From: Escherichia phage tootiki
Sequence record: MN850647.1
Strand: one strand, 5' to 3'
Length of the DNA: 64,000 nt
The position numbers and the translations under genes are program-made. Of this stretch, positions 3,624 through 39,190 are shown one piece after another. The notes below the pieces were generated by a model. The model was not told the origin of the DNA, searched no databases, and was given only the letters and a program-made list of their open reading frames with translations. Position 1 is the stretch's first letter; each line of letters opens with the position of its first letter.

Positions 3624-3796
3624 GTAAGCCTCTTTTAAGTAACTATTAAGTTTTAATCTTTTATCTTAACGTATTCTATACGTTATACTTTAAAGCTTTT
3701 TAAAAGCTATTAAATAATCTTTTAAGAGTTTTAAAGTATCTGTATAGTTAAACTGTTAAGTAACCTTTTAAGTAAAAACCCACTTCGCAAAGATTA

Positions 3797-3821: not shown

Positions 3822-3880
3822 TTGCTTTTTATAATTTTTTGCAGTAATGTATGAGGTTAATGATTTTAGAGGGAGTAAAA

Positions 3881-6023
3881 ATGGAAAACGTAGATTTTAA
3901 AAACTTACATTTGGTTGGTGATACAGAAACTGATGGTTTACTCCTTGAGTTCACTAAAGTTCACGTAATGGCCTTTGCAGACTATAAATCTGACGATGAA
4001 GAGCCACCTGTATGGGTCTTTACAGATGAGCCTATCCTCGGTCACAAGTACACTAAGTACATTAAGGGTGGTTTACGTGAAGGTGTTGAGTTTGCGTTAA
4101 AGGCAAAACGACTTTGTATCCATAACGGCCTCGGTTATGACTGGTGGGTCTTCAATCACATTGCACCGGATTTATGGAACTTTGATAATCCAAAATGTAA
4201 GCCGTGGAGTAATTTCTTTCAGGATTCTCTTATTCAGTCTCGTGTTCAGTGGATGGATAGACCAACTCCAAAGGGTTATAAAGGTGCTCATGGTTTGGCT
4301 GCATGGGGTGCTCGTGTTGGTGTTCGTAAACCAGAGATTGAGCATTGGGGTGTATGGAATGCAGAAATCTTCACTCGTGTTGTAGAAGATATCCGTATTA
4401 ATGCCAAAACTAAACGGGCACTTGATAACGAGTATCTCAAGCTTAAGAAGTGTGGTATAGACACTTATGAGACTTACATGCGAGCTAAAGAGACATCTTT
4501 CTGGATGAGCCAGCAAGCTATCAATGGTTGGAAAGCTGATAAGGAGCTTATGGAGTTCCATGTAAAGGAACTTGACAAGTTGACTAATGAGCTTGCTTCA
4601 GAGGTTGAACCACATCTACCTCCAACTATTAAGACCAAAGGTAAAGTGACTGGAGAAGAGTTTGCAAAAGCTTGGAATGAGTATGTTGAAACATTTGGTC
4701 ATGCAGATGGACTGAAGAGAATTACCAAGTACCCTAAGACAAAGTACCGTCAGCAGGTACGTAACGGTGAGATGCAGACATACGAAATCAAACCATTTGG
4801 TAAGCCAACTACAAAGATTTTTAATATTGAAAAGAGAAATTGCTATACACCAACCAACTCTGTAACTGGTGAAGAGTACAAAGAGGGTTTTGTAGCGATG
4901 AAGGATGCTCGTGCAATCTGCAACGAGTTGAATGCAAAGATTGGCAAAAAATGCAAAGACTGGAAACCAGTAAAAACAGTCAAGACTGTGAAGTACTATA
5001 ACAGTCACGTTGTCAATCACTTTGAACTTGAGTCAAGTCGCTACACAGGTTTGATTGATGCACCATATACACCAATTGAGTTTGAAGTTTCTCGTATGAC
5101 TCAGGTAGCAGTTGTTAAAGACTACTTGAAATCAGTTGGTTGGATTCCAGATGACTGGAATTACAAGAAAGACTCAGATGGTCGCCCTATCAAAGTTTGT
5201 CGTTTCAAAGACAATAAAAAGATGATTACAAAGCATCCTAAGTGGCAGGAAATGGTTGAGCGGTGTGGTTTGAGTTATGTTGAACATGAAGGTGTACAGT
5301 ACATCGAGCATAACTGGTCTGTGAAGAAATACACAGATTTGCTTGAACCTTGCTTAATCCGTACTTCACCAAAACTTACTGAGTCATCTTATGATACGAT
5401 TGAAGGTGAACTTGGACAGAAGATTGCTAAGTACTACACTTTGATGCACCGACGCAGAACTATTGAGAACTCAAAGGATGATGAAAAAGGTTGGTTGAAC
5501 CAGATTCGTCCTGATGGTCGCCTTAGTGCTGGTGCAATGGTATTTGGTACTTCAACTGGACGTATGACACAATATGGTATTGTAAACGTACCGTCTGGTG
5601 CTGCTGTCTATGGAGCACCTATGAGGGAGGTGTGGACTTGTGAAGATGGTACAGATATCATCTCCGTAGACCAAAACTCAGCCCAGCTAGTTCTTCTTTG
5701 TAACTTTATGGGTGATGAAGACTTCACTAAAGCAGTAACCGAGGGTAAAGAGTCAGTAGAGTTCACTAAGCAAGATGATGGTAGGTACTACTGTAAGCAT
5801 CTTGACAAGTATCTTAACCCAGAAACTGACAAGTATCTGCGTTATGATGCTGAGAATGACCTCTATGAAGTCTACACAGGGACTGATGCGCATACACTGA
5901 ACAGTATTTACTTTGGTCTGAACAAGGAAGAAGATATTGTTCGTTGTAGGGAGACACAGGATGATGAGCTTCTTCACGAGATTACAAAAGGTCGTAAGAA
6001 GGCTAAGAATGGCATTTATGCGT
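3881..6023 (+). CDS. DNA polymerase, family A (T7 gp5-like), exon 1 (3'-5' exonuclease and N-terminal polymerase domain)
   Basis: ATG at 3881 after GGAGG; Exo I motif LVGDTETDGL; reading frame ends inside motif B (RKKAKNGIYA) and is followed by an in-frame stop at 6062. Confidence 0.85.
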
Positions 6024-6291
6024 CAGTGGCGCATGTAAAACGTTGTGAATTGCTGGAAGCCTAAGTCTGTAAAGATATGGTAATCAGCAGCGAAGCCTCT
6101 TAAGAGGAACGTTCAGAGACTATCGAAAAGCATACTTAACGTATGAACTGAGTAGAGTAGGGTGGTAAGCTAATGACCATCCCCAAGTGCAACGGTAGCA
6201 CCACTGCTACGTGATATAGTCCGACACTCCGTAGAAATGCGGAGAAGTTCATAAGAGAACTGGTACACCTTGCGAGTGTATTGACCAGATG
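6024..6291 (+). ncRNA. group I self-splicing intron (ORF-less) interrupting the DNA polymerase gene
   Basis: Q-like AATCAGCAGC (6082-6091), R element GTTCAGAGACTA (6111-6122), S element GATATAGTCC (6213-6222); 5' exon ATGCGU can pair with intron GCGCAU (6029-6034) as P1 with U.G at the splice site; intron ends in G at 6291. Confidence 0.65.
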
Positions 6292-6848
6292 TATTGTTCG
6301 GGGCTGGAGACGAGAAGTTTGCAAAAACTATCAAGGCATCATCTACGGAAGAAGGTGCATTGACTAAACAAACTTACTTTGTGCGTCTACCTAAGATTAA
6401 AAAACTGCTTGATAGACTAGAGGAAGACTTCAAAGCAACTAAGAAAGCACTTGAAGAGGTTTTCGGAAAAACTTCTGCAATTGCCAAAGGTGGTTATATC
6501 AAAGTTGCTGGAGCGTGGTTATGGTGTAAATCTCCACATAAGTTATTGAATTACACACTTATGGGCAGTGAGGCGCAGGTGCAGAATGAAGGTATTAACT
6601 TGGCTAACAGAGAGTTAACAGAGCGAAAACTCACAGTCCTAAATGGTAGGAAACCAGCTATTGGTGCTAGATGGGTCTGTAGTTACCACGATGAGGTATC
6701 TTTAGAGGTTCCAACCAAAGATGTACCTGATGTTAAGGAGATTATTGATAGAATGTATGGTCAAGCGTCAAAAAATCTTGGATTAAAGAGTAAGACGCTT
6801 GTTACAGGCACTGGTAAGGTAGGTAAGACATGGTACGCCGTACACTAA
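6292..6848 (+). CDS. DNA polymerase, family A, exon 2 (motif B second half and motif C)
   Basis: Spliced junction restores KNGIYA-LLFGAGDEK (T7 gp5: KTFIYGFLYGAGDEK); motif C SYHDEV; C-terminus KTWYAVH resembles T7 NWAICH. Confidence 0.8.
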
Positions 6849-7333
6849 CACTTCAAGATTACAAGGATAATTTTATTTACGACCCCGACAAAGGGGTCTT
6901 CTACAACAAGTATGACAGGAATAGACAAGCTAAAGCTGGGCAGATTGCCGGAGGTGCTGATGCTTACGGTTACAAAGTACTTAAATTCAAAGATGTCGTA
7001 ATAAAAATTCATCACCTCGTTTGGTGGTTTGAACATGGTTACAAACCCACTAAGATGATAGACCACATTGATGGTAACAGAAGTAATAATCACATTTCTA
7101 ATCTGAGGGAGACTGATAAATACGGAAATGCTCAAAATAGAGTAAAGCAGACGACTAACAAATCAGGTTACAAGGGTGTACATTACTTTAAAGACTGCAA
7201 TAAGTGGAGGGCAGCTATAACATGCAGAGGTAAAAGGACATCACTTGGTTTATTTGACACACCTGAAGAAGCCCATAAAGCTTACTGTGAAGCTGCTGTA
7301 AAACTCCACGGAGAGTTTGCAAAACTAAGTTGA
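6830..7333 (+). CDS. HNH homing endonuclease with AP2-like DNA-binding domain
   Basis: HHLVWWFEHGYKP...IDHIDGNRSNNHISNL HNH core plus C-terminal YKGVHYFK...WRAAI...LGLFDTPEEAHKAY AP2-like region. Confidence 0.7.
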   Translation: MVRRTLTLQDYKDNFIYDPDKGVFYNKYDRNRQAKAGQIAGGADAYGYKVLKFKDVVIKIHHLVWWFEHGYKPTKMIDHIDGNRSNNHISNLRETDKYGNAQNRVKQTTNKSGYKGVHYFKDCNKWRAAITCRGKRTSLGLFDTPEEAHKAYCEAAVKLHGEFAKLS

Positions 7334-7378
7334 CAAGGTGCTCATGGAAGAGTACCTTATACAATATCTTATATAGGA

Positions 7379-7594
7379 GTGATTATGAGCCACCGTGGAA
7401 GAACCCATGCAGCAATGATGAAAGGTGCTTCAAAGGAAACCATCAAGAATCGTAAGCAGAAGTTGTTTGAGAGAATGAACAGGCTAATTGATAATTCATC
7501 TCTTTCAGGTTCTGAGAAGGTTTTCTTGAAAGGTAATCTGAAAAGCATTGCACAAGAGCTTATTGACATTGAATATTGGAGACATCAAAAATGA
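7379..7594 (+). CDS. hypothetical protein
   Basis: 71-aa ORF preceded by GGAG. Confidence 0.5.
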   Translation: MIMSHRGRTHAAMMKGASKETIKNRKQKLFERMNRLIDNSSLSGSEKVFLKGNLKSIAQELIDIEYWRHQK

Positions 7595-7803
7595 CACTTG
7601 CAGACGTTATTCAGCAACTTCACGACAACTGCTACACCCCAGAGTTGATTCAAGAGATGCTTATTGTGGTGATGCCTAGTAAGTTCTTAAAAGGTTTTAA
7701 TAATGACTCTTTGAGGTCTGCGCATATCCTTATTGTTGATGGTAAGATTGCAAGGGACCGTACTGGAGTCCTTAAGGGCGAACGTATTAATATTAACCTC
7801 TAA
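7591..7803 (+). CDS. hypothetical protein
   Basis: ORF 7576..7803 trimmed to ATG 7591 preceded by GGAGA. Confidence 0.45.
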   Translation: MTLADVIQQLHDNCYTPELIQEMLIVVMPSKFLKGFNNDSLRSAHILIVDGKIARDRTGVLKGERININL

Positions 7804-7822
7804 ATATTGGAGATACCGAAAA

Positions 7823-7978
7823 TGAAACGCAAAGTTAAGTTTTTTAATTTATATGGAAGAGTTGGTAAAGGTTTTGACTGGCAACTGTTACGCTCAAATG
7901 TTAAAAGCAATGAATTAGCACCACTTATCATTCATTATCGACGTACATACAGAGAAGTAGAGCATCGTGAACAGTAAA
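7823..7978 (+). CDS. hypothetical small protein
   Basis: 51-codon ORF with GGAGA upstream; below the ORF track size cutoff. Confidence 0.3.
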
Positions 7979-7989
7979 CAGGGGTGTAT

Positions 7990-8227
7990 TATGTGGAAAT
8001 CAGTAATTGCGCTTGGTGTTATTTTTATATCTGGCTGCAACCCTTCTTATGAAGATAAAAATGCTTCTTACAGCCTCCCACCAGAGATGCAAGATTGCAG
8101 AGTATACAAGTTACATGGTGATGCTATAAGCAGAGATATTGTTGTTGTCAGATGTCCAAACTCCCAAACAACAACATCTTATAGCTATGGCAAAAATGGT
8201 CAATCACACACTACGGTTATTGAGTGA
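7990..8227 (+). CDS. putative lipoprotein
   Basis: Signal peptide with lipobox-like ISGC; start chosen at internal ATG 7990. Confidence 0.45.
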
Positions 8228-39016: not shown

Positions 39017-39092
39017 TGGAGAATCCGAAGGGACTCGAACCCTTATAAACCTGTTCTGCAGACAGGTACATATCCATTTCTGTCACGGATTC
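39017..39092 (-). tRNA. tRNA-Cys (anticodon GCA)
   Basis: Cloverleaf by eye: acceptor GAATCCG/CGGATTC, anticodon stem CCTGT/ACAGG, loop CTGCAGA, T-loop TTCGAGT, CCA encoded. Confidence 0.7.
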
Positions 39093-39096
39093 AAAT

Positions 39097-39189
39097 TGGA
39101 GGAAGATACCAGACTTGAACTGGTACACCGATTTCTCAGCTACTGGCAGTTTAGCAAACTGCTCCCTTACCTTTTAGGGTTAATCTTCC
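39097..39189 (-). tRNA. tRNA-Ser (anticodon GCT), long variable arm
   Basis: Acceptor GGAAGAT/ATCTTCC, anticodon loop TTGCTAA, 21-nt variable arm, T-arm ACCAG-TTCAAGT-CTGGT. Confidence 0.7.
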
Positions 39190-39190
39190 A

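Follow-up and report, generated by a model that had tools for sequence, protein, structure and literature searches.

A free-standing HNH-AP2 endonuclease gene behind the DNA polymerase gene of Escherichia phage tootiki and its relation to a nearby group I intron

A pair of endonucleases, the product of gene 5.3 of phage T3 and the intron endonuclease I-TslI of phage PhiI, was reportedly described by Bonocora and Shub in 2009, and the free-standing and the intron-borne enzymes of this T3/PhiI system are said to be homologous. In collaborative homing, as outlined in two published accounts (PMC6083498, PMC3984707), a free-standing enzyme cuts the insertion site of an intron, and the intron blocks cleavage of the genome that carries it. 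The enzyme F-CphI and the psbA intron of cyanophage S-PM2 (Zeng et al. 2009) are presented as such a case in PMC6083498. The T3/PhiI system counts as another. In the trans homing of phage T4, the enzyme MobE cuts at a place other than the insertion site, and conversion, which reaches over ~2 kb, takes a non-autonomous intron along; the dependence of intron inheritance on MobE was demonstrated by crosses (PMC2790892). Here, we analyzed a stretch of 64,000 nucleotides (nt) from Escherichia phage tootiki (sequence record MN850647.1; hereafter the window), in which a gene for a free-standing HNH-AP2 endonuclease (6830–7333, + strand) follows the gene of a family A DNA polymerase that is interrupted by a group I intron without an open reading frame (ORF) (6024–6291, + strand). 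A first-pass annotation of the window had read this arrangement as collaborative homing, in which the endonuclease drives the spread of the intron.

The source phage is a Felix O1-like myovirus of the genus Felixounavirus. Felix O1-like phages are widely isolated and are used in typing and biocontrol. A 3.6-kb query around the endonuclease locus matched 259 phage records, the best of them at 94–98% identity, and nearly all are named as Escherichia, Salmonella, Shigella or Citrobacter phages of the Felix O1-like group. All counts given below are by record; the records are related to one another, and the Fisher p values are uncorrected for this relatedness. On balance, and with confidence only a little above even, we favor the explanation that the tootiki gene encodes an active homing endonuclease which moves by intronless homing together with the C-terminal segment of the polymerase, independently of the intron.

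The endonuclease gene and its slot behind the polymerase

The tootiki gene runs from an ATG at 6830 to a TGA at 7331–7333 and encodes a protein of 167 amino acids (aa). An HNH_3 nuclease core occupies aa 60–98 (7007–7123, + strand; Pfam PF13392, E 9.6e-12, 44.8 bits against a cut-off of 24.8), and the C-terminal part consists of an AP2-type DNA-binding domain at aa 112–161 (7163–7312, + strand; Pfam PF00847, E 1e-9, 39 bits against a cut-off of 33.3), which matches plant AP2/ERF domains in the PDB. The nuclease motif IDHIDGNRSNNHISNLRE (7061–7108, encoding DHIDGNRSNNHISNLR) aligns to VVDHKDGNKDNNLSTNLRW of I-HmuI. The start of the gene overlaps the 3′ end of the polymerase gene by 19 nt (6830–6848, + strand, ATGGTACGCCGTACACTAA), its ATG being made from the polymerase codons ACA TGG. 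Between the 3′ splice site of the intron at 6291 and this start codon lie 538 nt. The locus is thus laid out as first described: an HNH gene with an AP2-like domain begins in the last codons of polymerase exon 2, at the proposed distance of about 540 bp from the intron, and the intron is indeed empty, with no + strand ORF of at least 40 aa in 6024–6291. Neither the endonuclease ORF nor the ORF-less intron adjacent to it can be explained by chance.

The gene corresponds to ORF95 of Felix O1 (NP_944955.1, annotated as an HNH endonuclease), with 99.0% nt identity. HNH-AP2 proteins of this phage were pointed out by Magnani et al. in 2004, as cited in PMC5318435. Homologues at E <1e-8 were found in 2,561 phage records, and the 64-kb window holds no paralogue. 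The tootiki form of the gene, which we call allele A, is under strong purifying selection, with a ratio of non-synonymous to synonymous substitution rates (dN/dS) of 0.03–0.16 at dS values of up to 0.53. This constraint makes it likely that the allele A protein is active as an endonuclease.

Comparison with close relatives shows that the gene is optional at one exact intergenic site, the flanks of which are locally mosaic. In relatives without the gene, the polymerase stop codon is followed by 5–6 nt, usually TTAGTA, and then by the conserved block TTGACAAGGTGCTCATGGAAGAG, so that the empty slot reads CACTAA-TTAGTA-TTGACA. This block, located at 7330–7352 (+ strand) in tootiki, belongs to the next transcription unit and bounds the slot on its right-hand side. 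In tootiki, 481 nt stand in place of the 5–6 nt, and the endonuclease stop codon falls within TTGACA. Other occupied slots hold up to 534 nt, and the whole set of 481–534-nt inserts encodes homologous HNH-AP2 proteins of 167–177 aa. About 40% of the close relatives have an empty slot. The TTGACA block may be a promoter −35 element; as a candidate sigma-70 promoter it was set aside, since a consensus scan made no call there.

Five forms of the slot gene were distinguished, namely allele A (167 aa; tootiki and Felix O1), allele S (170 aa; phage Si3), allele P (177 aa; phage pSJ21), allele M1 (175 aa; loci L011, L012 and L027) and allele M2 (170–174 aa; loci L024, L031 and L034). Their proteins are 40–56% identical, except for P and M1, which share 84%, and the DH...N...N catalytic motif is intact in all of them. 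Judged from these comparisons, the slot is held by at least four deeply diverged HNH-AP2 alleles that compete for one place. The divergence stops at the 3′ end of the gene, where the last 24 residues are identical across all slot alleles. The shared segment (7228–7333 in tootiki, + strand, encoding ...TPEEAHKAYCEAAIKLHGEFAKLS) has 87–100% nt identity, and the final 70–106 nt common to the slot alleles, including those of loci L003, L005, L011 and L024, directly abut the conserved TTGACA block. This shared end probably serves as the right-hand homology arm for allele exchange, as regulatory sequence, or as both; by analogy with T4 mobE, it could be regulatory sequence that resists deletion.

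These data also bear on whether the protein might be inactive, or recruited for a phage function such as that of an AP2-type DNA-binding regulator, with its proximity to the intron being incidental. The low dN/dS is an unusually strong constraint for a purely selfish gene after fixation, and the gene forms part of the polymerase operon, its start codon overlapping the polymerase gene; both points favor this reading. However, no allele has lost its catalytic motif, the many empty slots mean that the gene is not essential, and the diverged alleles, the exchange of cassettes and the local mosaic zone described below are signatures of active homing. We therefore consider inactivity or domestication very improbable.

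The intron, its forms and its association with the slot

The polymerase gene consists of exon 1 (3851–6023, + strand; placed by ORF calls and alignment to Felix O1, and ending ...AAT GGC ATT TAT GCG T) and exon 2 (6292–6848, + strand; Pfam DNA_pol_A), which starts in motif B and ends with the TAA stop codon (6846–6848). The Felix O1 annotation places the polymerase start at 3860, 9 nt downstream of 3851. The 268-nt intron between the exons matches the Rfam model RF00028 (Intron_gpI) with 61.3 bits (gathering score 50), and its boundaries were taken from the alignment to the intron-less Felix O1 gene. The insertion point lies in polymerase motif B, between YA and LL, and excision of 6024–6291 yields a family A polymerase of 910 aa with KNGIYA joined to LLFGAGD at the junction. 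The 5′ splice site directly follows GCGT, whereby the U preceding it is paired in P1, formed by ATGCGT (6018–6023) with GCGCAT (6029–6034); the intron ends in ...GATG, with a terminal G. Self-splicing finds indirect support in the 96–100% conservation of the sampled ORF-less 268-nt copies in apparently viable phages. The polymerase of phage Meda, which carries allele S and an intron 100% identical to that of tootiki, is annotated in GenBank as a joined coding sequence. The intron of phage fBSPA4 differs slightly from the tootiki one (97.4% identity) and has other flank lengths. The tootiki intron is the only one of group I found in the 64-kb window.

Full-length allele A is present in 17 GenBank records, and the intron, the status of which was read from match spans and piece counts, accompanies it in only two of them, the near-identical records of fBSPA4 and fKMPT1. 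The remaining 15, Felix O1 included, are intron-less. Outside GenBank, the intron is likewise missing from all three IMG/VR loci with allele A and from the one further carrier that a scan of metagenomes brought up, although these four may overlap with GenBank records. With tootiki added, 3 of 22 allele A carriers from all sources have the intron and 19 lack it. Overall, the intron occurs in 96 of ~259 records, and in ~94 of the 242 genomes without allele A (about 39%), which corresponds to an odds ratio of 0.21 and a Fisher p of 0.035 in the negative direction. Allele A and the intron show no positive linkage, and their association is negative if anything. The linkage between endonuclease and intron that the first-pass annotation expected across related genomes is thus not seen for allele A, and its proposal that the endonuclease drives the spread of the intron is not supported for this allele.

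Since most allele A carriers have no intron, the intron is not needed to protect them from self-cleavage. This bears directly on collaborative homing in its strict form, in which the enzyme would cut the uninterrupted motif B at the insertion site, and the intron would protect its carrier and be copied in. The adjacency of the two elements and the absence of an intron ORF do resemble the defining cases, where a free-standing endonuclease lies by a gene with an ORF-less intron (PMC6083498, PMC3984707), and in T3, too, a free-standing HNH_3 endonuclease directly follows the family A polymerase gene. This part of the original reading stands. However, the role of the intron as protection of the carrier does not, as the insertion site is uninterrupted in 19 of 22 carriers. 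Together with the sequence of the insertion site itself, which is taken up below, this makes strict collaborative homing improbable.

The same intron, with a core that is 96–99% identical, occurs in three forms among the relatives. The first is the ORF-less form of 268 nt, as at 6024–6291. The second, of 780–805 nt, contains a 160-aa Endonuclease VII-type ORF (PF02945, E 9e-20) with N-terminal Cys-rich motifs, which is frameshifted in phage VpaE1; examples lie at 3725–4525 of L003 and 3725–4504 of L004. This ORF is enclosed by an extended hairpin, at the place where the tootiki intron has the short hairpin CCTCTTAAGAGG (6096–6107, + strand). The third form, of 311 nt, is found in garuso (L081) and Mushroom and represents a clean internal deletion of the ORF of the second form with both flanks kept; it is 83% identical to the tootiki intron. 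Parts of the intron core also match unrelated phages at 72–85%, namely NC_070874.1 (vB_EcoP-ZQ2), NC_055874.1 (crAss-like cr3_1) and PQ850613.1 (KarlSchell_Bas89), in some cases within a gene annotated as a DNA polymerase, which suggests a wider family of polymerase introns.

When the slot alleles are taken together, a different pattern emerges. Arrangements were counted with chimeric queries, the pieces of which join only for particular arrangements. An intron together with a slot endonuclease was found in 69 records, and the breakdown by span covers 60 listed records, with spot checks. Among these 60, the 268-nt ORF-less intron is combined with allele P in 32 records, with allele S in seven, and with alleles A and M2 in two each, while the 311-nt derivative occurs with allele M2 in four and the ORF-containing intron with allele S in 13. 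An intron together with an empty slot was found in 27 records, and 26 of these have the ORF-containing form. The 27th, the Salmonella phage GEC_vB_BS (L037, MW006475.1), is the sole apparent case of an ORF-less intron without a slot endonuclease, and its exon 2 is truncated. In this record (2814–2906), the exon 2 sequence between the 311-nt intron and the downstream genes amounts to only ~90 nt, so that the polymerase would lack motif C; an assembly error, a deletion anomaly or a defective genome is the likely cause. With GEC_vB_BS set aside as a probable anomaly, none of at least 47 ORF-less introns is found with an empty slot, compared with 26 of 39 ORF-containing introns, and in intron-less genomes the slot is occupied in about 86 of 163. 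Fisher p values for these contrasts are about 1e-12 and 1e-11. Given that the records are related and that about eight distinct haplotype combinations lie behind the association, its true support is moderate.

This family-wide pattern plausibly fits hitch-hiking of ORF-less introns, and it leaves a weaker version of the original claim standing, in which endonucleases of the slot, taken as a family, help such introns to spread. In a trans-homing scheme of this kind, the slot enzyme would cut exon 2 or the slot, conversion tracts reaching at least ~830 nt upstream would carry the ORF-less intron along, and ORF-less introns would persist only where a slot endonuclease is present, as with T4 mobE and the defunct I-TevIII. 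The restriction of ORF-less introns to occupied slots (47 of the 60 listed intron-plus-endonuclease records, and none with an empty slot) spans both the 268-nt and the 311-nt forms, four endonuclease alleles and two exon 1 backgrounds, and the contrast with ORF-containing introns is strong at face value (p about 1e-12). The spacing of 538 nt also lies inside the roughly 2-kb co-conversion range of T4 (PMC2790892). However, most carriers of allele A are intron-less, so the cassette is usually transferred without the intron; the conversion tract in the P-allele genomes L028 and L030 stops at about 6379, short of the intron site; and the short donor-type flanks of the tootiki intron are unlike the product of one long tract from the slot. 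The non-independence of the records moreover keeps the association moderately strong at most. As the explanation for the tootiki locus, we rate trans homing as possible but unlikely.

A broader picture can be put forward only tentatively, in which the polymerase 3′ region is an arena of the ORF-less intron, the intron with the Endonuclease VII-type gene and the multi-allelic HNH-AP2 family, and in which ORF-less introns survive only if mobilized in trans. If true, the stages of a pathway proposed to lead from an independent intron and endonuclease to a composite mobile intron would be visible side by side, with about 260 sequenced genomes at hand for testing.

Among the matching records, GU169904.1, MG065664.1 and MG065668.1 are titled Staphylococcus phage SA1 and Campylobacter phage A126/A132, respectively. 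They carry Felix O1-like polymerase, intron and endonuclease sequence at 96–98% identity and are probably contaminated or mislabelled.

Exchange junctions and the proposed route of transfer

A sliding-window identity profile delimits a mosaic zone at 5640–7260, which takes in the intron site, exon 2 and the endonuclease slot. Here the identity to relatives drops from mostly about 95–100% to 45–80%, and it returns to at least 90% on the right; the flanks as a whole are mostly about 90–100% identical. Over the equivalent positions, the Felix O1-like polymerase gene is a poor phylogenetic marker.

Inside the zone, allele A is linked with the end of the polymerase. An 'F-type' exon 2 begins at about 6379 and is seen only together with allele A. 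The corresponding last 155 polymerase residues (6381–6845, including motif C) have an identity of at least 98% in precisely those 17 GenBank records that carry allele A; the next best match reaches 80% in protein, and the segment is about 20–24% diverged from every other relative. No donor lineage for this C-terminus was found in the phage collection searched. Polymerase sequence further upstream does not cluster the allele A carriers. Such complete linkage would fit the transfer of a cassette in one piece, and poor homology inside the block (45–70% nt identity) could account for it as well.

The sister alleles show where exchanges may have taken place. Allele S occurs on four exon 2 backgrounds, each of which is common to genomes with another allele or with an empty slot, and the sole changes linked to S (CTT to TAT, CAC TAA to CAT TGA) are confined to the final 15–20 nt of the polymerase reading frame; the left junctions of its exchange lie within about 20 nt of the stop codon. 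This sister-allele pattern points to breaks or exchanges at the junction of polymerase stop and slot, with the shared 3′ end of the endonuclease genes as the putative right-hand arm. The insertion sites of S and M2 carriers match those of empty-slot genomes exactly across about ±35 nt, and therefore the intron site cannot distinguish self from target.

The insertion site thus also speaks against strict collaborative homing. Not only are the sites of S and M2 carriers indistinguishable from those of empty-slot genomes, but the insertion-site sequence of allele A carriers also occurs in genomes with other alleles (L028, L030 and L036). The possibility that allele A carriers have a special, immunized variant of the site was examined and dropped, since this sequence is shared in the way just described and departs from the common type no more densely than the rest of the mosaic zone does. 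Furthermore, cuts at the insertion site should often move the intron but not the endonuclease gene 560 nt further on, yet no ORF-less intron is found in empty-slot genomes. On the other side, crossovers do cluster at the insertion site, and the differing flanks of the tootiki and fBSPA4 introns suggest separate acquisitions after breaks there.

The exon sequence of the tootiki haplotype is of the Felix O1 type both 5′ and 3′ of the intron, apart from the donor-type bases that directly adjoin it, ATT TAT GCG T on the 5′ side and TA TTG TTC GGG GCT (14 nt) on the 3′ side. Meda shares the 3′ exon sequence of tootiki for 87 nt before another exon 2 type begins. The 14-nt tract might be taken to prove a break at the insertion site, an argument that Meda weakens, since this phage has the same intron with the same 87-nt 3′ flank; plain inheritance and recombination may be enough to explain the tootiki haplotype. 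Recombination near the insertion site joined the intron and allele A, probably more than once.

Combined, these observations are consistent with the following course of events. In a mixed infection, the allele A enzyme would nick or cut the polymerase 3′ region or the slot of genomes that lack the endonuclease gene. Repair off the carrier genome would then copy in the endonuclease gene with the adjoining C-terminal segment of the polymerase, so that the outcome would be intronless homing with co-conversion, or marker exclusion. The spread of the endonuclease would not rely on the motif B intron, nor would the intron be its self-protection. Tootiki would represent a rare recombinant haplotype, in which a Felix O1-type cassette of polymerase and endonuclease is combined with an acquired ORF-less intron. 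With only about 540 nt between the two, a long conversion tract might now and then take the intron along with the endonuclease gene, as a side effect rather than by design. What the sequences show directly is the domain make-up, the slot and its allelism, the patterns of linkage and the purifying selection; that the protein acts as a nuclease, where it cuts and which way the transfer runs are inferences.

Several observations weigh against this proposal of intronless homing. Allele A is always found with its own exon 2 variant, and thus the short-tract argument drawn from allele S is not transferable to it; the same linkage would follow if the cut lay further upstream, even as far as the intron site. 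Derivation of the allele A cut site by comparison was attempted and given up for the same reason, as the variant is too diverged for crossovers within it, and sequence alone does not reveal where allele A cuts. The donor-type exon flanks of the tootiki and fBSPA4 introns extend over only about 10–25 nt 5′ of the intron and 14 nt 3′ of it, which suggests breaks at the insertion site by a nuclease other than one of the intron's own. Finally, ORF-less introns strictly co-occur with occupied slots, a pattern that full independence of the two elements would not predict.

Other variation was noted around the locus. A 69-aa gene at 7386–7594, just 3′ of the slot, is optional among close relatives and is missing from VpaE1, L010, L011, L029 and L030, and more insertions and deletions occur among relatives around 7800–8000. 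Elsewhere in the window, an array of 23 tRNA genes lies at 39020–44210 on the − strand.

Comparison with known systems

The gene studied here is already annotated in Felix O1, and a free-standing endonuclease paired with an ORF-less intron is likewise an arrangement of a known kind. The comparative pattern around the locus is more interesting than the gene itself, and tootiki adds a rare haplotype to it; a literature search found no description of this intron and endonuclease pattern in Felix O1-like phages. The locus is a compact hot spot, with four diverged endonuclease alleles, an intron with and without an unrelated endonuclease, and a polymerase variant that is perfectly linked to one allele. 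It makes collaborative versus trans homing, allele replacement, and the co-evolution of nuclease and host gene directly testable in easily grown coliphages.

Felix O1 ORF95 is the nearest counterpart, as it lies in the same slot as the tootiki gene, overlaps the polymerase gene by the same 19 nt and goes with the same variant of the polymerase C-terminus. The two loci differ in that the Felix O1 polymerase, like that of 14 other GenBank records, has no intron, while tootiki adds the 268-nt one. Among solved structures, the closest nuclease core is that of I-HmuI, a nicking enzyme from the DNA polymerase gene of SPO1 (PDB 1U3E, E 3.6e-4), in which residues 51–105 align to residues 56–109 of the tootiki protein and the DH..N..N motif is shared. 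I-HmuI, by contrast, is encoded in an intron and ends in another DNA-binding C-terminus, whereas the tootiki protein is free-standing and carries an AP2 domain.

The T3 gene 5.3 resembles the tootiki gene in position, being an HNH_3 gene immediately 3′ of a family A polymerase gene, with polymerase introns in related phages. Its product, however, has 101 aa and no AP2 domain. Homology between the two proteins was considered and not accepted, since they share the Pfam family alone and the BLASTP match is marginal (E 0.027). While the two enzymes of the T3/PhiI system are homologous by report, the free-standing HNH-AP2 enzyme and the intron-borne Endonuclease VII-type enzyme are unrelated here.

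Compared with F-CphI, the types of enzyme are distributed differently. F-CphI has an Endonuclease VII-type motif instead of the HNH-AP2 architecture of the tootiki protein, and at the present locus the Endonuclease VII-type enzyme is found inside the introns of relatives. Moreover, the intron paired with F-CphI blocks self-cleavage, whereas most carriers of allele A do without an intron.

The arrangement of T4 MobE and the nrdB intron with the defunct I-TevIII is alike in several respects: a free-standing HNH gene lies between two conserved genes and shares a transcript with the upstream one, a non-autonomous intron is found within reach of conversion, and regulatory sequence of the downstream gene is located at or in the endonuclease 3′ end. 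The two cases differ in that the support at the tootiki locus is an association at the population level, and in that carriers of allele A are mostly without the intron. For the family-wide pattern of intron forms and slot states, the trans homing of T4 MobE is nevertheless a better analogy than collaborative homing.

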